From the NCBI GenBank assembly GCA_963802345.1, contig CAWDIK010000011.1:65757-129756 (forward strand): DNA of 64,000 nt, in the 5' to 3' direction. Positions 5,648-53,676 of the stretch are shown piece after piece; position 1 is the stretch's first letter, and each line of letters starts with the position of its first letter. The notes beneath the pieces are model-generated. The model was given only the letters and a program-made list of their open reading frames with translations. It did not search any database and was not told the DNA's origin. The position numbers and the translations under genes are program-made. The DNA is from Vicinamibacterales bacterium. GTDB lineage: Bacteria > Acidobacteriota > Vicinamibacteria > Vicinamibacterales > JAMQPK01.

Positions 5648-5675
5648 CAATCTATCAGATCTACCAATCATCAAT
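5648..5675. repeat. Tandem 7-9-nt repeat array (caatcta tcagatcta ccaatca tcaatg)
   Basis: Read directly from the sequence. It lies in the divergent spacer between the tRNA and the ORF starting at 5674, and is related to the arrays at 36487 and 53596 (rc GATTGGTAGAT-type). Confidence 0.7.
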
Positions 5676-6738
5676 GCGGATTGAGGGGGAACCACCAACC
5701 ATCGGCCTTTCGTACGGTACACTTCCACACTCCATGCGGGAACCGGGCGCGCCAGCGCCGTCGCGGGCGAGAATCCGGCCGATCGCCGTCGTCGCGGCGA
5801 TTGCCGGTGTGCTGCTCTTCATCTACACACTGCAGGCCTCCGGCCCGCGAGAAATCCTCCGGCAGCTCCGGCAAATCGGCGCCGGGTTCATCGTCGTCCT
5901 CGCGCTTTCGGCCATCCGTATGGCCGTACGCGCGAAGGCGTGGTCGCTGTGCGTCGAAGACACCGAGCGCTTCACGTTCGGGCAGGCCTTCAAGGCCTAC
6001 GTCACCGGCGACGCCGTCGGCAACGTGCTGCCCCTCGGACCGCTGGCCAGCGAAGGCACCAAAGCGCTGCTCATCCGCCGCAACATCGCGACATCAGCGG
6101 CGTTTTCATCCGTCGTCCTCGAGAACATTTTCTACAGCATCAGCGTCGCGATCATGATCATGATCGGCACGCTCGCGTTCCTCCTCGGCTACAGCCCGAC
6201 GAACGCCGCGCTGACGATCACGCTGTCACTTGGCGCCGTCGCGATCGTCTCCGTCATCGCGGTGTGGTGGCTGCTTCGAAGCGAGCCGCGGTTTCTCAGT
6301 CGATTCCTGAAACATTCCGCCGTGCGCGATGCGGAAGATCGCGTCTTCCGCTTCGCGGCCACGCGCAAGGAACGCATCGGGCAGATTCTGCTGCTGCAGT
6401 TCGCCTTCCACGTAACGGCGGTGCTGGAGATCTATTTCCTGCTGCGGCTGCTCGTGGGCCACGGCGATCGCACGTGGCTGATGGCGCTGGTTCTCGGCAC
6501 CGTCGAGCGCCTCATCATGATCGCGTTCAAGTTCGTGCCGCTGCGGCTGGGCGTCGATCACGCGGGATCGGGATCGATCGCGCAGATTCTGGGGATCGGA
6601 GCGGCGGTAGGCGTCACGATCGCAACGGTACGAACCGCAAGAAATCTGTTCTGGGCTGCTCTCGGCCTGGCGTTGCTGGCGATGGAGGCACGAGAAGCAG
6701 CCGAGAGCGGCCTAGGCCGAGATCAGCACGGCGCCTAA
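5674..6738 (+). CDS. Multi-pass membrane protein, flippase-like / lysylphosphatidylglycerol-synthase TM-region family (tentative)
   Basis: Intact 354-aa ORF with ~8 hydrophobic segments. The N-terminal pattern ...IAVVAAIAGVLLFIYTLQASGPREILRQLRQIGAGFIVVLALSAIRMAVRAKAWSL resembles UPF0104/LPG-synthase-TM proteins. An alternative start is ATG 5734 (MREPGAP). Confidence 0.55.
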   Translation: MRIEGEPPTIGLSYGTLPHSMREPGAPAPSRARIRPIAVVAAIAGVLLFIYTLQASGPREILRQLRQIGAGFIVVLALSAIRMAVRAKAWSLCVEDTERFTFGQAFKAYVTGDAVGNVLPLGPLASEGTKALLIRRNIATSAAFSSVVLENIFYSISVAIMIMIGTLAFLLGYSPTNAALTITLSLGAVAIVSVIAVWWLLRSEPRFLSRFLKHSAVRDAEDRVFRFAATRKERIGQILLLQFAFHVTAVLEIYFLLRLLVGHGDRTWLMALVLGTVERLIMIAFKFVPLRLGVDHAGSGSIAQILGIGAAVGVTIATVRTARNLFWAALGLALLAMEAREAAESGLGRDQHGA

Positions 6739-6750
6739 AGGCCAGCACTA

Positions 6751-6816
6751 CGACGACGACTAGACGCCACTGAGACGCCGTACGAGGTGCCGACTGCCGA
6801 CGACGGACTAGACGGC
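6751..6816. repeat. Direct repeat CGACGAC(G)GACTAGACG(C/G)C x2 filling a convergent spacer
   Basis: The two copies are 6751..6768 (cgacgacgactagacgcc) and 6798..6816 (ccgacgacggactagacggc). They lie between the stop at 6738 (+) and the stop at 6816 (-). Confidence 0.6.
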
Positions 6817-7421
6817 TACTTAGCCTCCGCCGCCGCCTTCTTCGCCAGGTCCGGCGTAATCGTCCAGTAGTACACCGTGGCGCCGTCGACGTTCAGCGTC
6901 TGCTCCGGTTTCCAGTCGCCCATGTCGAAATCGTGCGAGACGATGCGGGTGCCGGGTTTCAGCGTCCTCCACAGCGTCGGCCGCAGCTTCAGGTTGAGCG
7001 ACGGCAGCAGATACAACGACACGACCGTCGCTTCGCTGATGTCGGTGGTGAACAGGTCCTGATTCAGCACCCGCACGCGATCGCCGACGTTGTTCTTCTT
7101 GACGTTCTCGTTGGCTTCGGCGATGCGCCGCGGATCGATGTCGATGCACACCGCGCGGGCGCCCAGCTTGGCCGCCGTCACGGGAATGCGGCCGTCGCCG
7201 CAGCCGAGGTCGTACAACACGTCGCCGGCTTTCACGTTCGCCACTTTCAGCATCGCGTCGACGACGGTTTGACGCGTCGGCACGTAGATGACATCCGGCT
7301 GTCGAAGGCCTTGCTGCGCGGGGGCCGGCGCGGCCTGGCCGGCCGGCGCGGGCTCCGCCGAAGCGGCGCCGAGGCCAAGCACGAACACACCCACGAGAGC
7401 CGCCGCGAATCTAAGACGCAT
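6816..7421 (-). CDS. Secreted class I SAM-dependent methyltransferase
   Basis: Intact 201-aa ORF with signal peptide MRLRFAAALVGVFVLGLGAASAEP. SAM motif I is VLYDLGCGDGRI, followed by ...AVCIDIDP... Confidence 0.8.
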   Translation of the reverse strand: MRLRFAAALVGVFVLGLGAASAEPAPAGQAAPAPAQQGLRQPDVIYVPTRQTVVDAMLKVANVKAGDVLYDLGCGDGRIPVTAAKLGARAVCIDIDPRRIAEANENVKKNNVGDRVRVLNQDLFTTDISEATVVSLYLLPSLNLKLRPTLWRTLKPGTRIVSHDFDMGDWKPEQTLNVDGATVYYWTITPDLAKKAAAEAK

Positions 7422-10729: not shown

Positions 10730-11405
10730 GGAACCATTATATTCTCAGGCGCACGTGGTCGTCGTTTACCTTCACGGGTTTGCGTCCTCGCCGGACTCCT
10801 CGAAAGCGGCGCTTCTTTGCGGAGCGGTTCGCCGAACACGGGGTCACGTTTCTGTGCCCGGATCTCAATCAGCCGGCGTTTGCCACACTGACCGTCACGC
10901 GGATGCTGCAGCAGCTCGACGCGCAGATCTCCGCGCTGCCGCCCACGGATGTCGTGCTGATCGGGTCGAGCCTCGGCGGGTTCGTGGCGGTCGAAGCCGC
11001 CGCCCGCCAAGGGGAGATCCGCAGCATCCCATCTCGCGCCTGGTCCTGCTGGCGCCCGCCGTCGAGCTCGAATGGGATCGCTGGTCCGAGGTGAGGCCGG
11101 GCGGCATCGAGGGCTGGCGGAACGCCGGCCACATCGAGGTATTCCACTACGCGCTGGACCGGCCGGAGCGACTCGGGTTCGACTTCTACGAGGATGCCGA
11201 GCGCTATCACCCCGCAACGCGGCGGCTGAACCTGCCTCTGCTGATCTTCCAGGGCCGGCAGGATGAGTCCGTCGACCCCGACCTCGTCGAGCGCTTCGCG
11301 CGGCAACAGAGCCAGGCGACGCTCCACATGCTCGACGACACGCATCAACTGAAGAACAGCCTCGACGTCATCTGGCGGGAAACCGCACGATTTCTTGGAC
11401 TCTAG
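10728..11405 (+). CDS. Alpha/beta-hydrolase, YqiA-like esterase family; frameshifted as assembled
   Basis: [27 protein letters not shown] (frame of 10728) continues as FFAERFAEHGVTFLCPDLNQ...VVLIGSSLGGFVAVEAAA (ORF 10780..11094, GxSxG) and then HPISRLVLLAPAVE...LLIFQGRQDESVDP...DDTHQL (frame of 10728). Frame changes are at ~10810 and ~11012-11030. Confidence 0.7.
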   Translation: MEPLYSQAHVVVVYLHGFASSPDSSKAALLCGAVRRTRGHVSVPGSQSAGVCHTDRHADAAAARRADLRAAAHGCRADRVEPRRVRGGRSRRPPRGDPQHPISRLVLLAPAVELEWDRWSEVRPGGIEGWRNAGHIEVFHYALDRPERLGFDFYEDAERYHPATRRLNLPLLIFQGRQDESVDPDLVERFARQQSQATLHMLDDTHQLKNSLDVIWRETARFLGL

Positions 11406-11447
11406 ACTCTTGGACTCTAGACTCTGGACTCTGGACTCCACTGGACT
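11397..11447. repeat. Tandem heptamer array GGACTCT/AGACTCT (about 7 units) forming the whole convergent spacer
   Basis: The sequence is ggactct agactctt ggactct agactct ggactct ggactcc actggact. It contains the stop codons of both flanking genes (TAG 11403-11405 on the plus strand and TAG 11446-11448 on the minus strand). Confidence 0.85.
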
Positions 11448-11839
11448 ACAAGAGCCTCTGACACCCCGGCCGGCAGCGGCATTTGATCTTGCCCTTCGCC
11501 GTCGGTCATGTAGTCGTAGGTGAGCTCTTCGCCCTTGCGGATGGTGCGCGCGGCGCGAATCCAGATGATGTCGCCGACGATCTGCACGTAGCAGTTGCCC
11601 TTGCAGGAATGATTGATGAACCGCGCGATGTTGCCGCCGACCGCGGCGTCGCGCACCCAGCGGCGGTTGATCTGAAAGCACCAGATCAAGCCGCGCTTCA
11701 TGTAGCGGTTCTCGCGCGTGAGGCTCTCCTGATGCGAGATCTTCTGGCCCGCGTAGTCGATGATCCGCTTGTTCTTCGGAATGCGTTGCGTGGCGAACAC
11801 TCCCCAACCATGCAGCTTCGAACGGCGGCGTCTGATCAT
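11446..11839 (-). CDS. SET-domain protein (putative protein-lysine methyltransferase); frameshifted near the 3' end as assembled
   Basis: ORF 11417..11872 reads ...SKLHGWGVFATQRIPKNKRII...RFINHSCKGNCYV...GEELTYDY. After ~11488-11494 the adjacent frame gives the canonical Cys-rich post-SET end GEGKIKCRCRPGCQRLL-stop (TAG 11446-11448). The likely start is ATG 11839 (MIRRRRSKLHG), with 11872 as an alternative. Confidence 0.8.
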
Positions 11840-11992
11840 GGGTATGCGGCCCAGCCGGCAGGATGCCGGCACTACGAAAGCGTATTATGCGCGCTGACGC
11901 GGTCTCGAACCGTTCTGGTACAGTTGGGGCTCTTGGTTGGTGGTCTAGTGGTTGGTGGTAGTGGTGAGTAGTCGGTGGCGACGAGGAGCTGA

Positions 11993-12988
11993 ATGGAAGG
12001 GATCATCAAGGCGTGGGGCCGGATACTGGCCGGGTATCAGCCGAACCTGTCGATTGAGATCACACGCGAGTGCCCGCTGACCTGTCCGGGTTGTTACGCC
12101 TATGGCAGCGATCACCTTGGCGGCGACGTCAAGCTGCGCGAGCTGCAGGACTTCAAGGGACAGCAGCTCGTCGATGCGATGTTCGCGCTTCTCGAGAAGC
12201 ACAAGCCGCTGCACGTCTCCATCGTCGGCGGCGAGCCGCTGGTGCGCTACCGCGAGCTCAACGAGATTCTGCCGCGCATGGCCGAGATGGGGATCTACAC
12301 GCAGCTCGTCACGAGCGCCGTGCGCCCCATTCCGATCGAGTGGGCCGGCCTGCGCCGTCTGCAGATCGTCGTCTCGATTGACGGATTGCAGCCGGAACAC
12401 GACGAGCGCCGCAAGCCCGCGACCTACGAGCGCATCCTGAAGCACATCGAGGGGCACGACATCCGCGTGCACTGCACCGTGACGCGCCAGCAGGTGCGCC
12501 GCGACGGCTATCTCGAAGAGTTCGCGAAGTTCTGGTCGGCCAATCCGGCGGTCTCGCAAATCTGGATCAGCCTCTACACGCCGCAGGTCGGCGAAGTATC
12601 CGACCGAGCGCCTCACGAAGGCCGACCGCCAGAAAGTGGTGTCGCGACCTGCTCGCGTTTCGGTCGAAGTACCCGAAACTGCGCGCGCACGAGGCGATGC
12701 TCGACGCCTATGTCGCTGCCGCCCGACTCGCCGGACGACTGCATCTTCGCGAAGACGACGGCGTGTGTGTCGGCAAATTTCGAAAAGCCGATCACGCCGT
12801 GCCAGTTCGGCGGCAACCCCGACTGCGCGAATTGCGGCTGCCTCGCATCTGCCGCGCTCGCGGCCGTCGGCCGCCACAAGCTGCCGGGAGGCATCCAGGT
12901 CGGCAAGCTGTTCGAGGCGTCGTTCGAGATCGGGAATCGCGTGAGGGCAGTGAGGGAGAGCTTCGTCGACGAGATGAAGAGCTTCTAA
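11993..12988 (+). CDS. Radical SAM protein with C-terminal Cys-rich (SPASM-like) region; frameshifted as assembled
   Basis: The CxxxCxxC motif is ITRECPLTCPGCYAYG, followed by ...VSIVGGEPLV.... The C-terminal cluster is CQFGGNPDCANCGC. The central part reads through three frames (...YTPQVGEVS|ERLTKADRQKVVS|DLLAFRSKYPKLRAHEAMLDAYVAA|DSPDDCIFAK...) with changes at ~12605, ~12640 and ~12720. Confidence 0.75.
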   Translation: MEGIIKAWGRILAGYQPNLSIEITRECPLTCPGCYAYGSDHLGGDVKLRELQDFKGQQLVDAMFALLEKHKPLHVSIVGGEPLVRYRELNEILPRMAEMGIYTQLVTSAVRPIPIEWAGLRRLQIVVSIDGLQPEHDERRKPATYERILKHIEGHDIRVHCTVTRQQVRRDGYLEEFAKFWSANPAVSQIWISLYTPQVGEVSDRAPHEGRPPESGVATCSRFGRSTRNCARTRRCSTPMSLPPDSPDDCIFAKTTACVSANFEKPITPCQFGGNPDCANCGCLASAALAAVGRHKLPGGIQVGKLFEASFEIGNRVRAVRESFVDEMKSF

Positions 12989-13053
12989 CAGGAGATTAGG
13001 AGAATCAGGAGAATTTTTTTCGAAAAGAATTCTCCTGATCTCCTAATCTCCTG
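12989..13053. terminator. Bidirectional hairpin terminator built from inverted 8-9-nt repeat arrays
   Basis: The sequence is caggagattaggagaatcaggagaatt-tttttcgaaaag-aattctcctgatctcctaatctcctg. It has a ~26-bp stem with one bulge and T/A runs on both sides. It sits exactly between the stop at 12988 (+) and the stop at 13063 (-). Confidence 0.75.
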
Positions 13054-13062: not shown

Positions 13063-15467
13063 CTACCGGCCCACGCTCAACCGAATCCCACCATTGACCA
13101 GCCGCGGCGTGCCGATTGTCGTCGGGTTGGTGCCTACGTAATAGAGCGTGTCGAACAGGTTCTGCACGCCGAAGAACAGATCGACGTTGCGATTGACCGT
13201 GCGCGAGACCGTGAGGTTCATCACGTTGTACTCCGGCAGGCCCACTTCCCGCTTCTCCGGGACGCCCGGGAGGATCGCGGCCGTGTTGAGGTCATCGTCG
13301 AACTGGTGGCCGACGAACTGATTCTCGATCGCAAAGTTCACGTAGCGCGGGTTGGTGTAGTTCAAGCCCAACGACACGCGATTCTTGGGCACCTCGGCGA
13401 GATATTTGCCCGTCAGATCGATGCCCGCCGCGTCGACCTGCGACTCGTGCACCTTCGCGATGTCGAAGACGTACGCGGCCGAGACGCCCCAGTGGCCGTT
13501 CACGCGATACGACAGGTCGGTCTGGAACCCTGCGATGTTCGTGCTGCCGAGGTTCTGCAGCTGGCGGCAGGTCGGCACGCCGGCGCAACCGGGTGTGACG
13601 GGCACGTTGTTGGTCGCCACGGTGACGTTGGCAATCGGATTGTTCACGCGGTTGTTGAAGAACGTCCCGCGCACGGTGACGCGCTCGGTCGCCGCGACGC
13701 TGACGCCGGCTTCCTCACCGGTCAGCCGCTCGGGACCGAGCGTCTCGTTCGCCAGCGTCAGCACCTGGCCGACGCGGAACGGGCTGTAGAGCTCCTTGAG
13801 CGTCGGCGCGCGGAAACCCTTGCTGAAGCTGCCCCACACCGAGACGCGATCGGTCGCGCGATAGAGCGCGGCGCAGTCGCGGGCTGACGGTCGTGTCGGA
13901 TTTGTCGGCCAGCGACTCGCGATGCGCGGCGTCGGCTGCCCCGTCGCGATCACCGTCTCGAGGTTGTGCGCGTCGTAGTTGCGCCAGCTGTCGACGCGCG
14001 CGCTGCAGCGTCACCTGCAGCTTCGGCGTCACTTCGATCAGGTCCTGCACGAACACGCCCACGAACCTCTGCGTGCCTCCCGCGACGCGATGGATGAGCG
14101 GCGTCAGCCCTGTCGGGAGCGCGTAGGTGAGCTCGTCGCTGTCGCCGTCGATCCACCGGAAGTCGGTTCCCGCCGACAGGACGTGCGAGCGCGAGCCGAA
14201 CTGGAACGGACGCGACCACTGCACCATCGATCCGAAGGCGTTGGTCGGCACGGTCTTCTCGAGCGACAGGTTGCTCTGGCTGCGCGGCGGCGTCGCGGCC
14301 GGCACGGCAAAGGTGTTCTGGAAGAAATCCTCGTTGTCGAAGAACATGCGCGCCTCGACGTTGCTGCCTTCGGCGAACCGCAGCCGCGCGCCGCCGTTGC
14401 CGAACTTCCAGTTCGTGTCGTTGACCTCGCCGATCTTGCCGTTGTTCCGCTCCTCGTCGAACACGCCCGCCGCGGACGAACAGGTTGACGCGATCGGTCG
14501 GGTTGTAGTCGATTTTGCGCGCTGAAGCTCTGGTACCCGACGTTCGCTTCGTTGTCGATCGCGCCGCGCTCTTCTTCGGCCACGATGGTGTAGCCGTCGG
14601 TCTGCAGGCTGGTCGCGTCGAAGGTGACGCCGAACTTGCCCCACACGTCGCTGGCAAACAAATCCATCTTCGGCGTCGAGCGGTTGCCGTACTGCGGCTT
14701 GAAGATGAGCGTCCGCGGCGTCGGACGGTTCGTCACGATGTTGATGACCCCGCCCATCGCGTAGTTGCCGTACAGGCTCGAGGTGGCGCCGTCGATGATC
14801 TCGATGCGCTCGGCGTTCATCATCGGCACGCGCGTCCAGTAGACCCAGCCGCCGAACGGATCGTTGAACGGAACGTCGTCGAGCAGCACGAGCGTGCGGC
14901 TGACGCCGCTCGGCCCGATGCCGCGCAGCGACACGCCCTGCGCGGTCGGGTTCGCCGCGATGCTGCTGGTTCGCCGGAACAGGCTGAACGTCGGCACCTG
15001 CCGCAGCACGTCGTCTGCGACGACCGCGGGCGATTGCTCGATCTGCTCGTTGGTTACGATGTTGATGCTGGCCGGCACGTTGGTGATGCGCTGTTCCGAG
15101 CGCGTCGCCGTCACGACGAGCTGCTCGGCGTAGCCGGCGGGTTTGAGACGGACTTCGACGGTCTGCATCATCTCGGTCGTCAGATCGACGGTCACGTCCT
15201 GCACCTGGAAACCCGACGCCGACACGCGCAGCGTGTAGAGCCCGGCATCAGACCCGCCAGCGAGAACCGCTCGTTCGCGCTCGACACCGTCCGGCTGATA
15301 TTCGCGGCGCGCAATGTCGCGGTCACGTGCGCGCCGACGACGGCCAGCCCCTGCTCGTCGAGCACGGTGACGTCGATTCGGCGATCGGCAGCCGGAGTTT
15401 GTGCGAGCACCGGGGACGCGAGCGCGGCCATCCACACAGCGCACAGCAATAGAGCTGAATTTTTCAT
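13063..15467 (-). CDS. TonB-dependent receptor with N-terminal carboxypeptidase-regulatory-like domain; heavily frameshifted as assembled
   Basis: ORF 15192..15467 has the signal peptide MKNSALLLCAVWMAALASPVLAQ plus an Ig-like N-domain. ORF 14104..15444 has the plug (...TATRSEQRITNVPASINIVT...GVSLRGIGPSGVSRTLVLLDDVPFNDPFGGWVYW...IEIIDGATSSLYGNYAMGGVINIVT). ORFs 13950..14657, 13715..14644 and 13063..13953 carry the barrel (...FSKGFRAPTLKELYSPF...). There are at least six frame changes (~15240, ~14525, ~14465, ~13990, ~13940, ~13890). Confidence 0.85.
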
Positions 15468-15504: not shown

Positions 15505-18500
15505 TTAATGAAAGTCGTGCGAGTCGATGTCGATCGCAACACCGCCAAGCGCGTGTAAACGTTCGGCTTTGACCGACGTAACGCCGTCCTGGTTCTGCAG
15601 GATTCCATCGATGAGCAGAAACGGCTCGTCCAGAATCTTGAATCGCTCGCGGTCGAACAGATCGGGCCGGACGATGATGTTCGCGATGCCGGTTTCGTCT
15701 TCGAGCGTGAGAAAGACAAACCCTTTGGCCGTGCCCGGGCGCTGCCGCGTGATGACGCTGCCGGCCACGCGAATGCGCCGCCCGTTGCGCGCGCGCGACA
15801 GATCGACAGCGCGCAGCACCCCGCGCATCGCCAGCTCGGGCCGGCGCATGGCCATCGGGTGGGGGCCGATGGTCAGATGCGTGCCCGCATAGTCGGCGAC
15901 GAGACGCTCTTCGCGCGGTCATGGCTGGGAGCGGGCACTGCTCCTGCTAATCCGGGACTTCGGCAGATCGGCGAGGGACTCTGGGGATTCGGCAGTCCTG
16001 GAAGAGTTCCCCAGCAGGCCGTATCGCCTTTTCCACCTGCCACAGCGCTTCGCGGCGTTCGTAGCCGAACGACGCAAACGCGCCGATGTCGGCGAGCGTC
16101 TGCAATTCTTCGCGGCGGATGCCGGTGCGGTTGCCAGATCGTCGACCGACTTGAAGCGCGGAGGCGCTTCAATGGGCAGCATGGGTTGCGTGGGGTTCGT
16201 AGGGTCGCGTGGGGACGGTCCAATCGTGCGAGCAGGTGTTGCAGAAATATGCGCCCGCCTTCACCGTCTCGATCATCGACTCATCGTCGCACCCGCACTT
16301 CGGGCATACGCATGTGGCACCCGTGACTGCTCTGATCCCTAATCGCCCATCCCTGATCCCTGCTTTTTCTATGGCGCGTCCGACTTCTTCGCGCAAGCCC
16401 CGACACATACCGCAGCCCCAGCCGGACGCTGCCGTCTGTATCCACCCGGCACAGCCAGTCGGAGTGCTGCACGTCGACGCCGGTAAAGCGCACGCCGCGG
16501 CGCTGCGCGTCCTTCACGAGCGTGGCCGGGTGATAAAACCCCATCGGCTGGTTGTTGAGCAGCGCGGTGTAGAACGCCGCTGGAAAATGCACCTTCAAAT
16601 ACGCGCTGGCGTACGCGAGCAGCGCGAAGCTCGCGGCATGCGACTCGGGAAATCCATACAGCGCGAACGCCGTGATCGACGAAATGATCTGCTCGGCGGC
16701 GTCCCCCGTGATTCCGTTGTTCGCCATGCCCGCGCGCAGCTTGATCTCGACCTCTTTCATGCGCTTCTCGGATCGCTTGAAGCCAAGCGCGCGCCGCAGA
16801 TCTTCGGCCTGCCCGCCGGTGAAGCCGGCGGTGACCATCGCCATCCGCAGCAACTGCTCCTGAAACAACGGCACGCCGAGCGTGCGCGCGAGAATCGGCT
16901 CTAACGATGGATGCGCGTAGGTCACGGGTTCGCGCCCCGCGCGCCGGTTCAAATAGGGATGCACCATGTTGCCGACGATGGGGCCCGGGCGGATGATGGC
17001 GACTTCGACGACGAGATCGTAGAAACGCTCGGGATGCAGCCGCGGCAGCGTCGCCATCTGCGCGCGCGATTCGACCTGGAATACGCCGATGGTGTCGGCG
17101 TCCTGCAGCATCTTGTACACGGCCGGATCGTCGGGGGGCAGGTGTGCCAGATCGACAATGGGCTCTGGGCTCTGGGCTCTAGGCTCTAGGCCCGGTTCGT
17201 TCACCAGCGTGATCGCATCCTGCAGCACGGCCATCATGCCGAGGCCGAGCAGATCGACTTTGACGAGCCCCATGTCGGAGCAGTCGTCCTTGTCCCACTG
17301 CAGCACGACGCGCCCGGGCATGCTCGCGTTCTCGAGCGGCACGACGCTGTCGAGCTGCCCCTGGCAGATCACCATGCCGCCGGAATGCTGTCCGAGATGT
17401 CGCGGCAGATCCTGCATGCGGTTCCACAACTCGGCGAACCATCGGAATGTCGGGTGATCGAGATCGCAGCCGGCCTCGACCATCCGCTTGCGCAGCGTGT
17501 CGGCCGGATCGATGAACTCGAACTGATTCATCACCTTCGCGAGACGATCGACTTGCGTCGCGTCGATGCCGAGCGTCTTCCCGACTTCGCGCGCCGCGCT
17601 CTTGCCGCGATAGGTGATGACGTTGGCCGTCATCGCCGCGCCGAGCCGGCCGTATTTCTCGTAGACGTGCTGAATCACCCGCTCGCGGCGATCGCCGCTC
17701 GGCAGATCGAGATCGATGTCGGGCCATTCGCCGCGCTCTTCAGAAAGAAACCGCTCGAACAGCAGATCCATGCCCACGGGATCGACGGCGGTGATGCCGA
17801 GGCTGTAGCAGACGGCGCTGTTGGCCGCCGAGCCGCGCCCCTGCACGAGGATGTCGTTGTGCCGGCAGAAATTCACGATGTCCCAGACGATCAGGAAGTA
17901 GCCGGCGAGATCGAGACGCTCGATGAGATCGAGCTCGCGCGCAATCTGCGCCCTGGCGCGGTCGTGATACGGCCGATACCGCTCGCGGGCGCCGAGATCG
18001 GTCAGCTTGCGGAGAAACGAGATGTGCGTCTCGCCCGGCGGCACCGGATAATCGGGAAACCGATAGCCGAGATCGGCCATCGTGTAATCGAGCCGCTCGC
18101 CGAGCGCCTCGGTCGACGCCAGCGCCTCGGGCAGATCGCGGAACAGCCGCGCCATCTCTTCGGGCGGCTTCAGATAGCGCTCGGCATTGCGCGCGAGCGT
18201 CTTTCCTGCCTGCGCCAGCGTCGTCTTGTGATGAATGCAGGTGAGCACGTCGAACAGCGGCCGCTCGGCTGGATCGGCGAAGCGCACGCCGTTGGTTGCG
18301 ACAATCGGCACGTGAAACGTGCCGGCGATGTCGGCGAGCATGCGGTTGTCGGCCTCTTCGTCGCGCAGGAGATGGCGCTGAATTTCGACATACACACTGC
18401 CGCGGCCGAACACGCCGACGAGCGGATCGATCAACCCGCCGACGCCGTATTTCTGAAACCCGAGCAGCTCGCGCCCCGCAAGCGCGATGAGACCCCGCGT

Positions 18501-18914
18501 CTGCCCGTCGAGCTCGTCGAGCGTAAGGGCGCCCTCGCCTTTCGGCGCGCGCATCTTCATGCGCGTGATGAGCCGGCAGAGGTTCCGGTAGCCTTCGGCG
18601 GACTCGACGAGGACGGGAATGCGCAGGGGCGAGGGGTGCAGGGGTGAGGGATGCAAGGGTGCAGCTGCGGCGCGAAGCTCGGACGATGCATCGAGCGTAG
18701 GCGAGATCGTGAGCTCGGCGCCGATGATGGCCTTGATGCCGGCGGCCGTCGCCGCGCGATGGAAGCGCGGGGCGCCGTAGACGCCGTCGCGATCGAGCAG
18801 CGCCATCGCCGGATACCCGTAGCGCGCCGCTTGCGCGATCAGCGTTTCAGGTAAGGAGGCCGCTTCCAGAAAACTGAAAGCGGACGCGGCGTGTAATTCG
18901 AGATACATAACCAT
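15505..18914 (-). CDS. dnaE2: Error-prone DNA polymerase III alpha-like subunit DnaE2 (ImuC); C-terminal quarter frameshifted as assembled
   Basis: ORF 16281..18959 is an uninterrupted PHP plus polymerase core (MYLELHAASAFSFLEAASLPE...; ...LFERFLSEERGEWPDIDLDL...; ...IGVFQVESRAQM...). The C-terminal HhH/OB part continues in ORFs 16169..16408, 15919..16182 and 15505..15855 (...KGFVFLTLEDETGIANIIVRPDLF...). There are >=5 frame changes between ~16400 and ~15915. The start is ATG 18914 or 18908. The gene follows imuB, as in known imuA-imuB-dnaE2 cassettes. Confidence 0.9.
16331..16363. repeat. Heptamer array (rc: AGGGATC AGGGATG GGCGATT AGGGATC) inside dnaE2
   Basis: It encodes ...A-GIRDGRLGIR-A... 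in the dnaE2 frame, immediately before the zinc-ribbon insert. Confidence 0.75.
17160..17193. repeat. Heptamer array GGGCTCT x3 / AGGCTCT x2 inside dnaE2
   Basis: The sequence is gggctct gggctct gggctct aggctct aggccc. On the coding strand it is translated as ...EPGLEPRAQSPEP... between ...AITLVN and IVDLAHLPPDDPAVYKMLQ. Confidence 0.85.
18623..18665. repeat. Degenerate 7-8-nt array (GCAGGGG CGAGGGGT GCAGGGGT GAGGGAT GCAAGGGT GCAGC) inside the dnaE2 PHP domain
   Basis: It encodes ...AAAPLHPSPLHPSPLRIP... between IIGAELTI... and ...VLVESAEGYRNLCRL. Confidence 0.7.
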
Positions 18915-39922: not shown

Positions 39923-39943
39923 GAACGCCGTACTAACGCTGAT

Positions 39944-43561: not shown

Positions 43562-43575
43562 GGGACTATTCGACT

Positions 43576-43613
43576 GGGCTCTAGGCTTCCGGCTTCGGGC
43601 TTCAGGCTTGGGC
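43576..43613. repeat. Heptamer array GGGCTCT AGGCTTCC GGCTTC GGGCTTC AGGCTTG GGC
   Basis: It lies upstream of parC, on the 5' side of the four-helix-bundle gene. It is inverted relative to the array at 44042..44078. Confidence 0.85.
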
Positions 43614-43669
43614 CGAGTGCGCTGCCGCTGTCGCGGCGCGCAGCATTGCCACGTGAGGAGGCGCCGGAC

Positions 43670-44078
43670 ATGAGCCGAGATCACCGAAAACTCAAGGTTT
43701 TTCATGAGGCCGACGAATTGATTCTCACAGTGTACGCAGAAACTGCCACGTTTCCGGCGGAGGAACGTTTCGGATTTGTGCGCTCAGGTCCGTCGGTCGG
43801 CTGTGTCGGTCGCCACGAACATCGTCGAAGGCTGCGCTCGTCGGACCACGCGCGAATATCTGCAATTCATCAACATCGCGACAGGTTCGGCAGCGGAGAC
43901 GTTGTATCTGCTCGAATTGTCGCATCGACTCGGCTTCTTGAAAGCCGAAGTGTACCGACAATTCGATCGCCAAGTACAACCGCCTGCTGATCAAGGATTG
44001 CAGAAACTCCAACATCTCGCTGCGACCGACCGGGACGCCGCAGAGCCTAAAGCCCAAAGCCTGGAGCCGAGAGCCTAG
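43670..44078 (+). CDS. Four-helix-bundle protein (former 23S rRNA-intervening-sequence protein family); frameshifted as assembled
   Basis: GAGGAG RBS precedes ATG 43670. [35 protein letters not shown] joins [55 protein letters not shown] (ORF 43776..44078) at a T-run at ~43773-43776. The C-terminal tail is read out of the repeat array and is unreliable. Confidence 0.75.
44042..44078. repeat. Heptamer array (rc CTAGGCTCT CGGCTCC AGGCTTT GGGCTTT AGGCTCT), inverted partner of 43576..43613
   Basis: Read directly from the sequence. Both convergent ORFs (43776..44078 on the plus strand and 44047..44721 on the minus strand) terminate inside it. Confidence 0.85.
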
Positions 44079-44670
44079 TCTCCCCCACCGTCACCACTTT
44101 GCGCATGCTGCGATGCGCGTCGAGCACTTCCTGGCCGAGCTTCTTGCTGAGGTAGACCTTGGATTCCTGGTTGTCGGGGTGCGGCTCGTACTTGACGACG
44201 TTGAAATGGAGATGGTCGAGCGTGCCTCGCATCTCGTAGAAGCGATTCTTCGTCTTCACGAGGATCTCGTCGAATCCATTCTCGATCGCCCACGCTTCCT
44301 GCTGCTCGGTGAGCGCGCGGAAGTGTCCCTGGCCCCGCCAGTCGCGGCGCGTGCCGCCGATCCAGGTATAGAGGATGCGCCGGCCATCGAACTCCACGTA
44401 GTCGCGCAGCCGCTCGACCAGGTCCGCCAGCTTCGGAATACGCTCCTCGGCCCTGATTTCGTGCGCCACTTTGTACGACGCCGGGACGACGGTACCGGGA
44501 TCGTCAGGAAGCGGCGCCATCGCCATCAAGATAAGGTGGTCACGGTTCTGCAGGCGCCCGACGATCTCGGCGGCGGTCTTCCGGCGCTTGTATTCGCCGA
44601 AGAATTCCTCGATGTACTCAATCTCCAACGCGCCCTGCTCGAGGGGATACTTCGTGATGCGATGTTCCAA
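44047..44670 (-). CDS. GNAT-like acetyltransferase-fold protein (tentative)
   Basis: The C-terminal half IGGTRRDWRGQGHFRALTEQQEAWAIENGFDEILVKTKNRFYEMRGTLDHLHFNVV resembles GNAT motif A. The likely start is TTG 44670 (LEHRITKYPLEQG). ATG 44721 would put the hairpin array inside the ORF. Confidence 0.45.
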   Translation of the reverse strand: MEHRITKYPLEQGALEIEYIEEFFGEYKRRKTAAEIVGRLQNRDHLILMAMAPLPDDPGTVVPASYKVAHEIRAEERIPKLADLVERLRDYVEFDGRRILYTWIGGTRRDWRGQGHFRALTEQQEAWAIENGFDEILVKTKNRFYEMRGTLDHLHFNVVKYEPHPDNQESKVYLSKKLGQEVLDAHRSMRKVVTVGETRLSAPGFGL

Positions 44671-44683: not shown

Positions 44684-46365
44684 TTACAGAAGATCAGGAG
44701 ACCAGGAGAATCTCCTTTCAAGCGAACTCCTGATCTTCTGATCTTCTGTTGCAGAATTTACTTGCTCGAGTTCGATGTTCAGCTCGGCCCCGAAGACCAT
44801 CGTCCGATCGTTGTCGCGCGCGGCCCACTTCAGCATCGTCTGCACGTTCGGCTCGACCAGGCCCTCGAAGACCGTGCGGCCGTTCGCGACAACCTTGATC
44901 GGACGGCGGAAATCGAAGATCGACGGCGACAGCAGCAGCGTAAATGCTCTCACGCCTTCGGTCGATGCCTCCACTACATTCCCACGCCGCACGAGATCGA
45001 CGCGGCCCGACGGCTTGCGCCGCGGAAAAATCGGCGTCGGCGGCCGCTCGACTTCGACGGGCGAGAACACACCCTCGAGCGTCTTCCGCTCGCCGCCACG
45101 CTCGACGACGAGCCGCACGCGCTCGCCCTGGACCCACTTCTCCATGATCTGCACCATGTCGAGCCCGTTCTCCACGGCCTTGCCGTTGACCTCCACGAAT
45201 CGATCGCCGGTGCGCAGGCCGATCTGAAATGCATTCGACCCGGCCACGACCTCCTGCGCACGGCGGCCGCGATCGATCGACGTGTTGATCCTGAGGCCGA
45301 AATCGAGCTCGCGTCCGCGGTGCAGCAGGTTGCTGTCGGCCAGCCGGCTCTCTCCCTCGACCGGCCCCAACCTATCGATGACGAGCCAATTCGCGCGATT
45401 GAACCGATCGACGCGCTCGGTCTGCCACGAAATCCTGTCGGGCAGCGGCTCGCGTGGATGGTCCAGCACGAACTCCTCGATGTCCGGCCGCTCGTCCGCC
45501 CACCACCCGGTTGTATGTTCCATCTCGGCGTAGACGCGGAAGACGACGGACGCCCCGAGCTTGCGCAGATGGTCGACGTACGGTTCAACGGCGTGCGCGG
45601 GATACAGCGGATCCCGCCCTGTGTTGACGACGTAGAGCGGCCTGTTGACCGCGTTACCTGGAAACATCTCGCCGTCGGTGTGCACCGACGGCGTGCCGAG
45701 CACCATCATGTTGCCAATCAGCGGAATGAAGCTCGCCCACGCCGTCGTGTCCCTGAAGGCCATGTAATACACACCCGTGCCGCCGTCGGAGGAGCCCGTC
45801 AGGTACACGCGATTTTCATCGATGTTGTAGGTCCGCTTGAGCCGATCGAGGATGCGCGCGAGGTTATCGACCTGCGTCGAGGACCACCACAGCGCCCGCA
45901 CCCATCCATTCGGAAAAACCCGAATTTCGTCGACTCCGCTGGGCAGCGCGTCGACCCTGATGCGATTGACCGGAGCGGCACGGGCGCGCGCGATGCCGCC
46001 GTGCAGGTAGAAGCGCACCTGATAGGGACGCGACGGGTCGTAGTCCCGGGGCACGACGAACGCGTAGTCGTGCTCGATGCCGTCCATGGTGCGGTGGTGG
46101 TCGAACTGCAGGCCCCGCGGCACGTCGGCGCTGTAGTCGGGACCGTGCCGCACGCGCTCCAGAGCTTCTTCGAACGAGACGCCCGTCTTGAGAATACGGC
46201 TCGATGCGATCGGCGGCGCCGGCGGCATTCGGGCTGCCCAGAACGATCGAAACGCGCGGTCGATGGCCGACGCGGCTGCTGGGCCGACGCCACCAGCGTG
46301 GCAGCAAGGCCGACGACGGCAACAGCGAGGCCGTTGGCGCGCCAACCTGCGCTCGGACGCCGCAT
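44684..46365 (-). CDS. Secreted alpha/beta-hydrolase (esterase/depolymerase-like) with a C-terminal PDZ domain; one frameshift as assembled
   Basis: The signal peptide is in ORF 45799..46398 (MRRPSAGWRANGLAVAVVGLAATLVASAQQP, ATG 46365). It joins ORF 44684..46390 at ~46270-46290. The nucleophile elbow is VYLTGSSDGG and the PDZ-like segment is ...FQIGLRTGDRFVEVNGKAV... Confidence 0.7.
44687..44748. repeat. Inverted 7-8-nt arrays forming a hairpin (CAGAAGATC AGGAGACC AGGAGAATCTCC ... CTCCTGATCTTCTGATCTTCTG)
   Basis: Read directly from the sequence. It sits between the stop at 44684 and the next co-oriented gene. Confidence 0.8.
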
Positions 46366-46450
46366 AACATGAGCTACGGCTGGCAGGCACGGCCGCATTA
46401 TAGGCGGATGTACGCGCTGACGGACTCGGATCGCTGGCCTGAGGTCACTG

Positions 46451-47368: not shown

Positions 47369-49861
47369 TCACTGCGGGTCGCCACCCGGAGCGCTGGCGA
47401 TCGCGTCGCGGAGCTTCTGCAGCGTCTCCGGCGATCCGCTGAACAGACCCTCCGGGTACTTCTTGTGCCGCAGGATGTCTGCGTAGATCGGCCCGCTCTG
47501 GTACAGGTTCAGCCCCAGGCCCGCGAGATACTGCAGCCGCAGATCGCGGTCGCGGTTGATCTGCGCATCGGCCAGTATACGCCTTCAGGTCGGACGCCCG
47601 GCCCGCGTAATTCGCGAACAGATCCAGCGCCGAGTAGATGCTGATTTCCCGCAGCGAGTCTTTCACCGCCGCATACTGCGGGCTGTTGAGCCGCGCTTCC
47701 CATTCGTCGACGTTGAAGTGCGGCGCCTCCACCGTGCCCATCAGCACGGTGTCGTACCCGCGCCCCTGGTGCGTGTTGCCCCAGATGACGCCGTTCGGGA
47801 ACACCTCGAAGAACGTGCCGATCTCGCTCTTGACCGCTTCCGGCGTGCTCTCATACAGCTGCACGAACAGCGTGACCGTGCCGCCCGGGTTGAGCTTCGA
47901 TTTCGCGAGCTCGAAGAACTCTTTCGTATACAGCGTCGCCGCGCCCTTCACCCACGGATCGAGCGGATCTGACGTGATCGCGTCGAATCGTCTCGTCGGT
48001 CGTCAGCAGAAAATGCCGCGCATCGTCGATGACGACGTGGGTCTTCGGGTTTCGGACGACGTGGAAATTGTGCTCGCCGAAATGCTCGGAGACGACGCGC
48101 GGCACGAGCGGCTCGATTTCGGCGATCGTCAGCGACTTCCACGTTCTGATCGATGCTGACGGCTCCGGCGGTCGCGCCGGCGCCGCAGCCGATGACGAGC
48201 ACCCTCTTCGGCGATTTCGGCACGAGCGTCGTGAAGTGCCCGAGCATCCGCTGCAGCCGCATGTCCTGCGGCTGGCTCGAGGCCTGCACTTTTCCCGCGT
48301 TGTGGTAGTTCATCACGTCGCCGAAGCGCGACACGGCGACCGACGAGCTGAGGCCTTCGCCGACGTAGAAGATGTCTCCCTGCTGCCCCATCCATGTCGC
48401 CGCGTACCGGCCGTAGGCGACGAGAATGCCTGGAATCGTCGGCACGGTCCGAATCAGAAACGCGGCAACCCCGAGCGCGATGATGAGCATCACGTTCGGC
48501 GACCCAGCGCAGCGTGTAGTTCCGTCCTGCCGAGACCTTTTCTGACACCGAGCTCAGCTCCGCCGGCGCGAGCAGGAGCAGGCCGGACATCCCCGAGACG
48601 ATCATCAGCACCTGCTGCGCGCGCTGCGATCCGAACCAGTAGACGAGAATCAGGCTGGCGATCACCGAACCGAAAATCGCGCCGACCGTGTTGGCGGCGT
48701 ACACGCCGCCGACGAGCCGTCCCGGGTCTTCGCCCCGTCTCGCCACTGACGCGAGCGCGAGCGGAAAGCTCGCGCCCCACAGAATCGGCGCCGGGCAGCA
48801 CCGCCCAGAACGCGCGCACGAAATCGAGCTGGAAGTTGTACCAGATGCTGGTCGTGATCGACGTGTTGATCGGCCAGTACGGCAGCGACTCCATCAGCAT
48901 GTAGGCGCTCCACGCCATCGCGCCGACGTTGAGCAGCTGGCACCAGCCGAGCGCGACCCGCGGCCGCTCGACGCTCTTCGCCATGATCGATCCGAGGCTG
49001 CTGCCGATGCCAAGCCCAATCAGGAACACCGCGAGGATCAGCGAAAACGTGTAGGTGGAGGCGCCGAACAACAGGCTGAGCACGCGCGTCCAGATGACCT
49101 GTGCGGCCAGCGCGCAGAACCCCGACAAGGCGATCGCCACATACACGAGCGCCCTGTCGCCTGAGGCCTTGGTATCGGGATTAGGGATTGGGGATTCGGG
49201 GATTGGCATCGGAGTCGCTCGCACGCTCGACCGTCGCCGGCGTTTTCGCGGCAACGAGCAGTCCGAGTCCGCCGACGGCGAAATTGATCGCCGCCGCCAC
49301 GTAGGTCGCGGTGCTCATGTCGAACACGCGCAGCAGGTAGAAGCCCGCGAGCAGCGTGCCCATGACCGCGCCTGCGATGTTGCCGGCGTAGAAAAAGCCG
49401 AGCCACGACACGCCTGCCGGCGTCGTCTTCACCCAGCGCGCGACAGCGGGCAGCGTGGCGCCCATCGCGAGCGTCGGCGGCAGCAGACAGATGCTCGCGA
49501 CCAGACCGCGCAGCAGGTACCCGGTGATACCGTAGCCTCCCCACGCGGTGTAGACATGGCCGACCAGCGGCAGCACGAGAATCAGCAGCAGGCCGATGAT
49601 GCCGATCGCAATCTCGAGGAGCGCGTACACCTTCAGCGGGTGATGCCTCGGGGAGATATAGCGCGGCAGCAGAAAGCTGCCGAGGCACATGCCGCCCATG
49701 AACGTGCCGAGCAGCACGCCAATCGATACCGATGAGGAGCCGACGAACAGCTCCAGCATCTGGAACCAGACGATCTCGTAAATCAGCGCCGCGCAGCCGC
49801 TGCCGACGAACAGCAGCAGCAGCACCGGCAGCCATTGTTCCGTCGACTGGACTCGGCCGTC

Positions 49862-52844: not shown

Positions 52845-52862
52845 CGCGACTCCGAGAGCGGC

Positions 52863-53567
52863 TTACTTCCAGACGGCTTCGATGGCCTCGAAGCGCGTCT
52901 TGCCGACGTTGGTGATGGTGTGGGTGACCGGGCCGGTGTGCCACTCGAATTCGCCGGCTTTCATCTCGATGCGGTGCGCGGCCGAGCCTGGGCGCTCGAC
53001 TGAAATGGCTCCGTCGTGCGCCGCGATGAGCAGCCCCGATCGCGGCAGCGTATAACGCCCGGTCGACTGGCCGGGCTCGAGGATCAGCCGCTCGACGCGT
53101 ACCAGCTCGTTGTCGAGCGCCGGTTTCTCCTGATAACCCGCGGGCTTCGGCGACGCGAGAAACGCGCCGGCCGGCGAGACGTCGTCGCGCGACTGAATCT
53201 GGACCGTGATGTTGCGGAACGTCGTCGACGCGATGTTGCCGACGCGATGCGTGAGGGCCGGCGAGTACCGCACTTCGGCGTCGACCGGCTCGATGTTGAT
53301 GATCTCCCTGGCGCCGAGCGTCTGGCCGCGCAGCGTCGCCGCGCCGATGGAAATCCAGAAGTACGGGTTCTCGTGAATGTGATACAGCGTGCCGCTGAAC
53401 GGCTCGACGGTCACGTCGAGCACGCGCGCGTACTTATTGTCGAGCTTGACGAAATGATGCGGCTCGCGAATCGCGGGAACCTGCATGTCGGGTGTCGCCG
53501 CGCCTTGTGCCAGCGCGGCGGCTGTGAGCATCACGATGCCCAGCCCCACTCCGTAAATTTTCGTCAT
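52863..53567 (-). CDS. Secreted bicupin-like protein, function unknown
   Basis: Intact 234-aa ORF with signal peptide MTKIYGVGLGIVMLTAAALAQG. It has two beta-barrel-like halves with His-containing motifs (...GTLYHIHENPYFWI... and ...GEFEWHTGPVTHTITNVG). Confidence 0.5.
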   Translation of the reverse strand: MTKIYGVGLGIVMLTAAALAQGAATPDMQVPAIREPHHFVKLDNKYARVLDVTVEPFSGTLYHIHENPYFWISIGAATLRGQTLGAREIINIEPVDAEVRYSPALTHRVGNIASTTFRNITVQIQSRDDVSPAGAFLASPKPAGYQEKPALDNELVRVERLILEPGQSTGRYTLPRSGLLIAAHDGAISVERPGSAAHRIEMKAGEFEWHTGPVTHTITNVGKTRFEAIEAVWK

Positions 53568-53595
53568 GAATCGGGATAATACTTGATGCAGTCCG

Positions 53596-53676
53596 AATTG
53601 GCAGATTGGAAGATTGGCAGATTGGCAGATGACACGTCATCGGTCCAATCTCAATCTGCCGAATCTTCCAATCTTC
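53596..53676. repeat. Inverted octamer arrays (ATTGGCAG ATTGGAAG ATTGGCAG ATTGGCAG ... CCAATCTC AATCTGCCG AATCTTCC AATCTTC) forming a ~30-bp hairpin
   Basis: Read directly from the sequence. The centre is ATGAC-AC-GTCAT. It lies between the stop at 53685 and the start at 53567 of co-oriented genes. Confidence 0.85.

Follow-up and report, generated by a model that had tools for sequence, protein, structure and literature searches.

A stretch of 64,000 nucleotides (nt) from a soil bacterium of the Vicinamibacterales (Acidobacteriota; contig CAWDIK010000011.1; the whole stretch is hereafter called the window) carries numerous tandem arrays of 7-9-nt units between and inside its genes, which raises the question of what these arrays are and with which genes, if any, they belong. 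The reading that we favour, with a probability of about one half, is that the window arrays are termini, miniature derivatives and relics of cassettes resembling the intervening sequences (IVSs) of 23S rRNA, and that they fall into the known class of 7-9-nt tandem repeats. These cassettes encode the 23S rRNA intervening-sequence protein (IVP; family PF05635/TIGR02436, 'four helix bundle protein'). The window contains one such cassette, at 43576-44078, which comprises three features:

43576-43613, + strand: RGGCTYC array of about 5 units, upstream terminus of the IVP cassette; the start codon of gyrA is 14 nt away.
43670-44078, + strand: PF05635/TIGR02436 IVP gene, with a single-base frameshift near 43795 and its last codons in the downstream array.
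44042-44078, - strand: AGAGCCT-type array, downstream terminus of the IVP cassette, inverted relative to 43576-43613 and abutting the stop of the - strand gene 44047-44670.

The two arrays are mutually inverted and enclose the IVP open reading frame (ORF). The encoded protein matches PF05635 (E 2.8e-29, 101.9 bits, cut-off 33.8), TIGR02436 (96.5 bits, cut-off 24) and the Xanthomonas structure PDB 2GSC/XCC0516 (E 3.9e-21). Its match to the retroelement protein Avd is below threshold; PF05635 is considered Avd-like (PMC10053308). In the predicted fold of 519 nt (43568-44086), the arrays are paired as a long interrupted stem around the ORF, both in the minimum-free-energy and in the centroid structure (z -6.8). 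The cassette is flanked by gyrA and a protein-coding gene and does not lie in helix 25 or 45 of 23S rRNA. The IVP ORF is also frameshifted, at another position, in the contig L161 (ENA ERZ25039547 contig_9539), which is 96-97% identical to window 27504-49808, and metH (27859-28788/28715-30940) is split likewise, again with frameshift positions that differ between the window and L161. As these positions differ, the frameshifts in IVP and metH are, judging from the sequences, probably long-read indel errors rather than signs of pseudogenes, and ORF ends near arrays therefore need cautious reading.

The association of IVP genes with inverted arrays is also observed outside the window. We used 80 loci selected by GyrB from independent assemblies (L001-L080) and 80 metagenomic loci seeded on the IVP protein (L081-L160). 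In the first set, tblastn with the window IVP protein found one relative, and a small hidden Markov model together with inspection of the L033 ORFs recovered others. The window and L001-L080 contain four IVP genes by this model, all bracketed by inverted arrays of the host's own unit, which is a 7-mer in the window, a 9-mer twice in L033 and an 8-mer in L046. The metagenome scan was seeded on the protein only and returned loci with a GC content of 0.36-0.69, of which 55 have at least 300 nt on each side of the gene. Among these 55, an array is present upstream in 42, downstream in 36 and on both sides in 33, with a period that is almost always 7 and sometimes 8. The two flanking arrays consist of one unit in inverted orientation; a test of the orientation of AGGCT cores was uninformative, since AGGCT and its reverse complement differ by one base. 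Array density is 2.28/kb near the IVP gene against 0.43/kb elsewhere. Inverted complementarity between the flanks is significant in 48 of the 55 loci, including 6 of the 10 in which Tandem Repeats Finder reports no array, and the median score of the flanks is 39 for inverted against 19 for direct similarity. In the IVP phylogeny, unit families track IVP clades. The period-7 arrays at the loci L081-L160 exhibit a length mode of 31 nt (34 of 177 arrays, with 57 of 177 at 30-32 nt), which corresponds to 4.4 copies or to five occurrences of a 3-nt core. Such a sharp mode argues for a constraint rather than for free slippage.

Finished plasmids of cultured strains provide a further set of nine IVP loci. 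None of the nine lacks a flanking array: one has an array on one side only and eight on both, the two being inverted in seven of these eight. The plasmid matches of the window IVP protein come mostly from taxa rich in short tandemly repeated repetitive (STRR) sequences. The units flanking the gene on these plasmids are as follows:

Nostoc punctiforme: GGGTGTG / ACACCCT.
Calothrix brevissima: AGGGTGT / CTACACC.
Calothrix PCC 7716: TTAGCTG / AGCTAAA.
Trichormus variabilis: TCAGAAT / ATTCTGA.
Picosynechococcus PCC 7003 (L168): AGGAGATA / ATCTCCTA, between cas10 and cmr3.
Pseudanabaena pPg_01 (L166): 11-16 copies, between cas6 and cas4.
Gemmatirosa: 8-mers.
Azospirillum: GAGGACG.
Nostoc 7120: downstream array only.

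The Picosynechococcus unit is close to AGGAGAWY, a unit of the window. In L166 and L168 the IVP cassettes with their arrays lie within CRISPR-Cas operons, where tight operon spacers have been invaded. Rehm et al. list, in a supplementary table and without comment, a GGGAATC array that overlaps the start of the gene for the crystallised Xanthomonas IVP, XCC0516 (PMC4692102). Two metagenomic loci carry tRNA gene arrays (L136, 1-3902, 19 tRNAs; L098, 23-2260, 11 tRNAs) in which most spacers are inverted-heptamer hairpins with units of the AGGCTTA and AGGCYAG types, and one inter-tRNA spacer harbours an antisense IVP cassette with a closely related unit.

The arrays of the window were counted with Tandem Repeats Finder (period 7-9, at least 2.8 copies, score at least 30, overlapping rows merged), and the chance level was taken from order-1 and order-3 Markov simulations of the window (100 runs). 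The window contains 22 arrays of period 7-9 against 2.0-2.2 in the simulations (maximum 9 in 100), and 11 with a score of at least 40 against 0.11. The excess is limited to period 7 (13 against 0.8) and period 8 (7 against 0.8-0.9) and is marginal at period 9 (3 against 0.4-0.6), and periods 4-6 and 10-12 are at about chance level. As the arrays are well above the Markov expectation, the repeats are real and not compositional. Tandem Repeats Finder reports every array locus given in a first-pass annotation of this DNA except 5648-5675, which is visible by eye only. The arrays do not occupy almost every spacer, as had been proposed: 13 of the 34 spacers between 5000 and 54300 contain one, a count that rests on a crude codon-model gene map. 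Nor are they exclusively intergenic and non-coding, since seven are inside imuA/imuB/dnaE2 ORFs (16182, 16332, 17159, 18623, 19256, 19954-20038 and 20471). The observation that ORFs run into the arrays was borne out for 11091-11405, 11417-11872, 44684-46390 and the IVP ORF 43670-44078. Beyond the cassette, the arrays of the window are:

5648-5675, unstranded: degenerate CAATCTAY 8-mer array, seen by eye and below a Tandem Repeats Finder score of 30; upstream of a + strand gene starting at 5674/5809.
11393-11447, + strand: about 6 copies of GGACTCT/AGACTCT, with a fold that is not significant (z -2.5); the convergent ORF 11091-11405 (+) and SET-domain gene 11417-11872 (-) both terminate within it.
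11934-11959, + strand: weak TGGTTGG array, 3.6 copies, in a divergent spacer.
12989-13053, unstranded: inverted AGGAGAWT arrays, predicted 31-pair hairpin with a U-rich tail (-48.4 kcal/mol, z -10.7), separating the convergent genes 11993-12988 (+) and 13063-13953 (-).
16182-16213, + strand: TGGGTTGCG 9-mer run between dnaE2 ORF fragments, with a G-quadruplex (G4) motif.
16332-16362, - strand: CTGATCC-type array, located 3'-terminally in the truncated dnaE2 ORF.
17159-17193, + strand: GGGCTCT array, 4.7 copies, in frame in dnaE2.
18623-18664, + strand: GCAGGGGT/AGGGGTG array within the PHP-domain part of dnaE2 and in frame with it.
19256-19283, + strand: GGGATTR array with exact GGGGATT units, in the imuB-like ORF 18943-19821.
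19954-20038, unstranded: GGGCTTY array followed by a partly inverted AAAGCCC/GAGTCC half, weak fold (z -1.5), within the imuB ORF fragment 19883-20101 (- strand).
20471-20502, - strand: AGGCTYC-type array, assigned a period of 14 by Tandem Repeats Finder, within the 3' portion of the imuA-like ORF and inverted relative to array 19954-19979.
26183-26209, + strand: GGGATTK array with a G4 motif, in a divergent spacer; the start of the - strand gene 25467-26159 lies 23 nt downstream, and a TATAAT box adjoins.
31053-31080, + strand: TATTCGT/TTTTCGC array downstream of metH, present in L161 and not in L002.
31280-31313, + strand: array of the 8-mer CGAAGACG; the corresponding site of L002 is occupied by a cluster of related CACGAAGA arrays.
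36487-36514, - strand: 3.5 copies of the 8-mer CAATCTAC, immediately adjoining the RibD_C gene 36515-37042 at its stop codon.
37957-38020, + strand: TTGGACTC/GACTCTT array abutting the gyrB stop codon; the site is occupied by GGACTC arrays in L002 and by ATCGTCC units in L001 and is free of arrays in L003.
39943-39974, + strand: gyrB leader array with the unit GGGATTM, downstream of the extended -10 box TGGTACAAT and ahead of the ATG; gyrB mRNA would bear its C-rich strand.
44687-44748, unstranded: inverted AGRAGAYC arrays, predicted hairpin (-38.1 kcal/mol, z -7.2), at the end of a PDZ-protein ORF with the next gene 14 nt on.
49176-49206, + strand: GGGATTR array, 4 copies including GGGGATT, at the 5' end of a spermine-synthase-like - strand gene; L002 has the identical unit here and L003 has no array.
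53596-53676, unstranded: inverted ATTGGCAG arrays, about 4 + 4 units, predicted hairpin (-41 kcal/mol, z -6.4 to -7.3), in a divergent spacer; the start of the - strand gene 52863-53567 lies 28 nt downstream, and the proximal unit of the hairpin provides a -35-like CTGCCA, 17 nt from a TATTAT box.

The first-pass annotation held that each locus has its own unit. Units recur across loci above chance: the 7-mers include 11 locus pairs with at most one mismatch against 2.6 expected (P ~0.001), and the 8-mers 2 against 0.1. Five families can be distinguished, namely GGGATTN (19256, 26183, 39943 and 49176), GGGCTYT/AGGCTYC (17159, 19954, 20471, 43576 and 44042), GGACTCT (11393 and 37957, with GAGTCC units in the inverted half at ~20005), CAATCTAC/ATTGGCAG (5648, 36487 and 53596) and AGGAGAWY (12989 and 44687, the two hairpins being paralogues). 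The heptamers form a chain of single mismatches (GGACTCT-GGGCTCT-GGGCTTT-GGGATTT-GGGATTG) that reaches the IVP-type RGGCTNN unit. The unit repertoire is small, related and genome-specific rather than locus-specific. As for the proposal that many arrays form hairpins from inverted halves, three strong cases stand (12989, 44687 and 53596, the only inverted-array hairpins with a z of -6.4 to -10.7 on folding of the window), and most arrays are single direct arrays with no significant fold (z ~0). The view that the arrays are not CRISPR arrays was correct: the units are contiguous and 7-9 nt long, and a CRISPR array, considered and rejected here, would require repeats of ~23-47 nt with unique spacers of similar length. 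In a scan of the window with Rfam, only tRNA-Met (5305-5377) reaches the gathering score, with no array match and no rRNA.

According to the cassette reading, a full element would consist of a small IVP gene between two inverted arrays of one unit, the ORF-less inverted pairs at 12989, 44687 and 53596 would be miniature cassettes, and single arrays would be half-sites or decayed copies, with all arrays diversifying fast via slippage. The paired arms are predicted to fold as stems of at least 30 base pairs. By analogy with the Coxiella IVS, such stems in host transcripts may be cut by RNase III. Cleavage would excise or insulate the insert, so that insertion would be tolerated in leaders, operon spacers, tRNA arrays and rRNA, and arms made of tandem repeats would still pair, in any register, after indels. 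The IVP-bearing IVS of Coxiella 23S rRNA has a 28-bp terminal stem that is cut by RNase III in experiments; the 5' cut occurs at the first of three tandem GACAGAT heptamers, and the number of heptamers varies between strains (PMC4990558). The Coxiella IVS, the hairpins between the tRNA genes of L136 and L098 and the 31-nt length mode are hints of a role at the level of RNA.

Several points weigh against this reading. Only one of the ~22 arrays or array pairs of the window touches an IVP gene, and for four of the five families (GGGATTN, GGACTCT, ATTGGCAG and AGGAGAWY) the 64 kb contain no IVP partner; a link of these four to IVP is suggested by the similarity of their units and by IVP cassettes with similar units elsewhere (L156, L107, L114 and L168). 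In the Vicinamibacterales loci, 164 of 212 arrays have no inverted partner under a strict criterion, and as most arrays are unpaired, the stem mechanism cannot cover most arrays as they stand. RNase III cleavage of these arrays would be an extrapolation from rRNA IVSs only (PMC4990558). Seven arrays lie in ORFs, and processing of the RNA at these sites would do harm if the operon is not decaying. No target-site duplication is recognisable around hairpin 44687 in comparison with L003 and L081, and no transposition enzyme was found among the ~30 ORFs scanned with Pfam or NCBIfam. Finally, the arrays could be landing pads for IVP genes and not parts of them.

A broader proposal, which we put forward as tentative and doubtful, is that IVP cassettes are widespread, hitherto undescribed selfish IVS-like elements outside rRNA and the source of STRR-type arrays, with the pentameric, Avd-related IVP recognising its own unit and driving maintenance or spread. 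A typical array of 31 nt would then present five cores, one per IVP subunit, and spread might occur via an RNA intermediate freed by RNase III. Such elements would be the source of arrays in cyanobacteria, Xanthomonas, Geobacter-like genomes and Acidobacteriota.

The comparison with related genomes bears on how the arrays evolve. The GyrB of the window (38021-39922) has its closest relatives, with up to 94% amino-acid identity, in Vicinamibacterales metagenome-assembled genomes (MAGs). According to Tandem Repeats Finder, arrays are lineage-wide across the GyrB loci, each genome having its own 7-, 8- or 9-base units. L001 exhibits 8 arrays in 12.5 kb, with the units ATCGTCC and GCCCAAA, and L002 has the units GGACTCAT, CACGAAGA and AATCCCC. 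L033 has 14 arrays, mostly of one 9-mer family, with up to ~10 copies each, L036 has heptamers in up to 12.6 copies, and L039 has GGTGCTCAG in 14.6 copies. Most outgroup loci (Phycisphaerae, Polyangiaceae and Woeseiaceae) have none or almost none. An assembly artefact was also considered and is excluded, since independent Illumina (k141/megahit, SPAdes) and Nanopore MAGs both carry arrays, as do finished genomes and plasmids of cultured strains; the arrays thus do not vanish in independent assemblies, an outcome that the first-pass annotation had named as fatal to its claim. No independent assembly of the same strain was found, the nearest being L161, at 96-97% identity.

Eight of the nine arrays in 27504-49808 are anchorable in L161, and all eight are at the same site. 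The arrays are the most divergent stretches between the window and L161 and differ in copy number as well as in sequence: L161 has extra units at 37957 and 44042 and 33 more bases at 49176, and its gyrB-leader array is decayed. Copy number thus varies at shared sites. In relatives of ~80% nucleotide identity, the presence of arrays is patchy and independent from site to site. L161 and L002 both have hairpin 44687, which L081 and L003 lack. The cassette upstream of gyrA is present in L081, L002 has a solo array only at this place, and L003 has nothing.

Other arrangements were observed in these relatives. L002 has a tandem duplication downstream of gyrB (11922-12776), with at least 2 copies of a segment of ~383 bp and GACTC-type arrays bounding each copy. 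In L033, the frame of a Ser/Thr kinase ORF is shifted by an internal 9-mer array (13894-13987), which separates the DWG (DFG-like) motif from the APE motif. L001 (2529-3166) has inverted ATCGTCC/GACGATC arrays 563 nt apart, just downstream of gyrB; by eye their interior resembles a GNAT-type acetyltransferase gene, not IVP, and if so, arrays can bracket other small genes as well.

Of the gyrB leader array of the window (39943-39974), L161 and L002 have a degenerate version, and L003 and L001 have none. The extended -10 box TGGTACAAT (~39990-39998, - strand) is conserved upstream of gyrB in the window, L002 and L003. The gyrB gene of L003 is almost leaderless, whereas in the window and in L002 the array separates the -10 box from the ATG. 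Several genes, among them 52863-53567 and gyrA, seem to have a -10-like box just a few bases before the start codon, which suggests leaderless mRNAs or mRNAs with very short leaders. Nowhere in the window (1-64000) do consensus sigma-70 promoters or canonical intrinsic terminators exceed the shuffle expectation.

The densest array cluster of the window, with seven arrays in reading frames, is the imuA-imuB-dnaE2 SOS-mutagenesis operon (15505-20911, - strand), which is split into several ORFs. The ORF 16281-18959, an '892-aa DnaE', is the error-prone DnaE2 (NF004225 'error-prone DNA polymerase', 1029 bits). Array 17159 encodes PGLEPRAQSPEP in the linker between the NTPase and finger domains of DnaE2, and array 18623 encodes PLHPSPLHPSPL, a 16-residue insertion in the PHP domain relative to E. 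coli DnaE.

Other explanations must be weighed against the cassette reading. The arrays may be neutral by-products of a polymerase slippage that favours ~7-nt units, as proposed by Mrazek and colleagues in 2007 (as cited in PMC4692102), arising in place with no function or link to genes. The hypervariability of copy number and sequence between strains that are 96-97% identical fits this view, as do the arrays inside ORFs, the predominance of single, unstructured arrays and the presence of the error-prone imuA-imuB-dnaE2 system in the window. Nevertheless, we consider slippage alone rather unlikely: an origin in place predicts unrelated units, yet units recur and L033 contains mostly one 9-mer family, inverted pairing far exceeds chance, the lengths peak at 31 nt instead of following a decaying distribution, and arrays concentrate at IVP genes in taxa otherwise poor in arrays. 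Alternatively, the arrays, paired or single, could be sites for a sequence-specific DNA- or RNA-binding protein acting in trans-regulation or element maintenance, for which the pentameric IVP is the most economical candidate. Unit families co-vary with IVP clades, and arrays far outnumber IVP genes, as expected of a trans-acting factor (Xanthomonas has 186 repeats). The 31-nt mode amounts to five cores at a spacing of 7 nt, as would suit a homopentamer (the 2GSC entry has five chains), and the homologue Avd is a positively charged pentamer that binds RNA stem-loops (bioRxiv 10.1101/2023.10.23.563531). In addition, several arrays occupy -35 or leader positions, and the Geobacter arrays are annotated as 'global regulator sites' (PMC2700814). 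As binding by IVP is only putative, the co-variation is equally well explained by joint inheritance of gene and arrays, a spacing of 7-9 nt is out of phase with the DNA helix, and the window has several unit families and only one IVP gene, this explanation is unlikely as well.

The remaining explanations concern fewer arrays. G-quadruplex regulatory repeats of the GGGNATC / GGGGA(T/C)T type, known from Xanthomonas and Nostoc, would account for the GGGATTN family, which has ~4 copies at 19256, 26183, 39943 and 49176 and includes the exact unit GGGGATT at 19256 and 49176. Canonical G4 motifs are enriched in the window (9 against 0.7 expected, 6 of them within arrays), and the G-rich strand is the non-coding one in all four 5'-proximal cases, which matches PMC4692102. 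The predicted quadruplex motif (G3+N1-7 x4) is nevertheless present in only 6 of the 22 arrays and missing from the other 16, and many units lack G-runs (CAATCTAC, AGGAGAAT, AGCATTC, TCAGAAT and AAAAGCT) while having the same architecture and the same preference for ~4 copies, which makes G4 formation a very unlikely general explanation. It is hardly probable that the hairpin arrays serve as factor-independent terminators or 3'-end stabilisers, built of repeats in a genome that would lack canonical terminators; such terminators are nowhere enriched in the window. This would suit hairpin 12989-13053, located between convergent genes and followed by UUUGUUU, and the arrays 36487, 37957 and 11393, which abut stop codons. 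Only 3-4 arrays are hairpins, however, and many others are in 5' leaders, divergent spacers or ORFs. Hairpins 44687 and 53596 lack U-tracts, and a scan for the terminator consensus flags only part of 44687, such sites being no more frequent than the shuffle expectation; the bracketing of IVP genes and the inter-tRNA hairpins would also be left unexplained. Finally, the arrays could be palindromes resembling repetitive extragenic palindromes and bacterial interspersed mosaic elements (REP/BIME) or miniature inverted-repeat transposable elements (MITE), mobilised by a transposase encoded elsewhere, for example a REP-associated tyrosine transposase (RAYT). They are intergenic, genome-specific, often in inverted pairs and patchy among relatives, and hairpins 12989 and 44687 are paralogous. 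This is extremely unlikely, since internal tandem repeats and variable copy number are unlike REPs, no RAYT or other transposase was found among the ~30 window ORFs scanned with Pfam or NCBIfam, target-site duplications were not recognised, and the gene regularly found between the arms is IVP and not a transposase. These alternatives cover subsets of the arrays (6 of 22 for G4, one or two sites for the terminator) or keep some probability beside the cassette reading.

Tandem heptamers are a long-known feature of some bacteria. Classical STRR units of heterocystous cyanobacteria are CCCCAGT, TTGGTCA and CAACAGT, none of which matches a consensus unit of the window arrays. The analogy with STRRs drawn in the first-pass annotation is apt and reaches beyond what was suspected there: the STRR-like heptamers of Nostoc, Calothrix and Trichormus plasmids bracket the same IVP family as one pair in the window. 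Like the window arrays, STRRs are tandem heptamers, mostly intergenic, with few units recurring genome-wide, and the IVP genes of STRR-rich cyanobacteria are bracketed by heptamer arrays. In contrast, the host of the window arrays is an acidobacteriotum with a GC content of 64%, and 8- and 9-nt units are as common as 7-nt units. Such repeats are not new to high-GC genomes, as had been supposed, since they have been described for Xanthomonas (PMC4692102) and Geobacter metallireducens (PMC2700814).

In Xanthomonas, with a coding GC of ~65%, GGGAATC heptamer arrays often form inverted pairs near ORF ends (PMC4692102). The Xanthomonas and Nostoc repeats of Rehm et al. (2015, PMC4692102) resemble the window arrays in lying within ~50 bp of ORF ends, in preferring ~4 units, in being intragenic in a minority of cases, in keeping their site between species while varying in length and, in Xanthomonas, in forming inverted pairs. 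They differ in consisting of one G-rich unit explained by G4, to which the preference for four units in Xanthomonas and Nostoc was ascribed (PMC4692102), whereas most window units are not predicted to form G4. In G. metallireducens, each family has four tandem hepta- or octanucleotides, in inverted pairs and also within genes; these families share with the window arrays the 4-5 tandem units of 7-8 nt, the dozens of copies, the mostly opposite-strand pairs at variable distance and the occurrence of several within some genes (PMC2700814). Unlike the window arrays, they were annotated as putative binding sites of global regulators or as regulatory RNAs, and the IVP family is not mentioned in the text of that paper (PMC2700814). 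The TAACTGA repeats of Beggiatoaceae, cyanobacteria and Bacteroidetes are also intergenic heptamers, in 2-6 copies with a patchy phylogeny, near start codons in place of the ribosome-binding region, but they have a single AT-rich unit that is nearly always direct, with a strong orientation bias upstream of starts (PMC4679880).

The closest parallel to the cassette is provided by the 23S rRNA IVSs with an S23p/IVP ORF (Coxiella, Leptospira, Brucella and Xanthomonas; PMC4990558), which likewise comprise a PF05635 ORF in a terminal stem of ~30 bp. The Coxiella IVS has GACAGAT x3 at its 5' arm, with strain-variable copies, and the element is ~430 nt in both cases (PMC4990558). The present cassettes differ in being located between protein-coding genes, inside operons and between tRNA genes and not in helix 25/45, and in that both arms are largely tandem units. 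REP/BIME with RAYT are comparable in being short, intergenic and genome-specific and in often forming inverted hairpin pairs at gene ends, but REPs are unique palindromes tied to a Y1 transposase, whereas the arrays are tandem and tied to a four-helix-bundle protein.

Intergenic heptamer arrays are thus already known in Xanthomonas (PMC4692102), Geobacter (PMC2700814), Beggiatoaceae (PMC4679880) and cyanobacteria. What appears to be new is the abundance of 7-, 8- and 9-mer arrays in Vicinamibacterales, the general bracketing of PF05635 genes outside rRNA by inverted arrays, and the resulting link between STRR-type repeats and the PF05635 family. Searches of open-access literature found nothing on Vicinamibacter tandem repeats and, on PF05635/TIGR02436 together with heptamer repeats, only the Coxiella IVS paper; an earlier account in a subscription journal is possible.

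STRRs have been known in cyanobacteria for decades and were found again in Xanthomonas, Geobacter and Beggiatoaceae, each time with an ad hoc account: G-quadruplexes, regulator sites, translational control or polymerase slippage. The present results tie the arrays to the IVP family, a homologue of Avd, with bracketing by the host's own unit in at least four phyla. In practice, the arrays lengthen or break ORF calls in MAGs, are hotspots of strain variation and introduce in-frame insertions into proteins. If the cassette reading is true, arrays and the multicopy 'four helix bundle protein' genes would be one element, two orphan observations would be joined, and the link would be testable in tractable organisms, such as Xanthomonas, with XCC0516 and its crystal structure, or Nostoc. 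The cassette link also hints at the origin of the STRR-type repeats of cyanobacteria.

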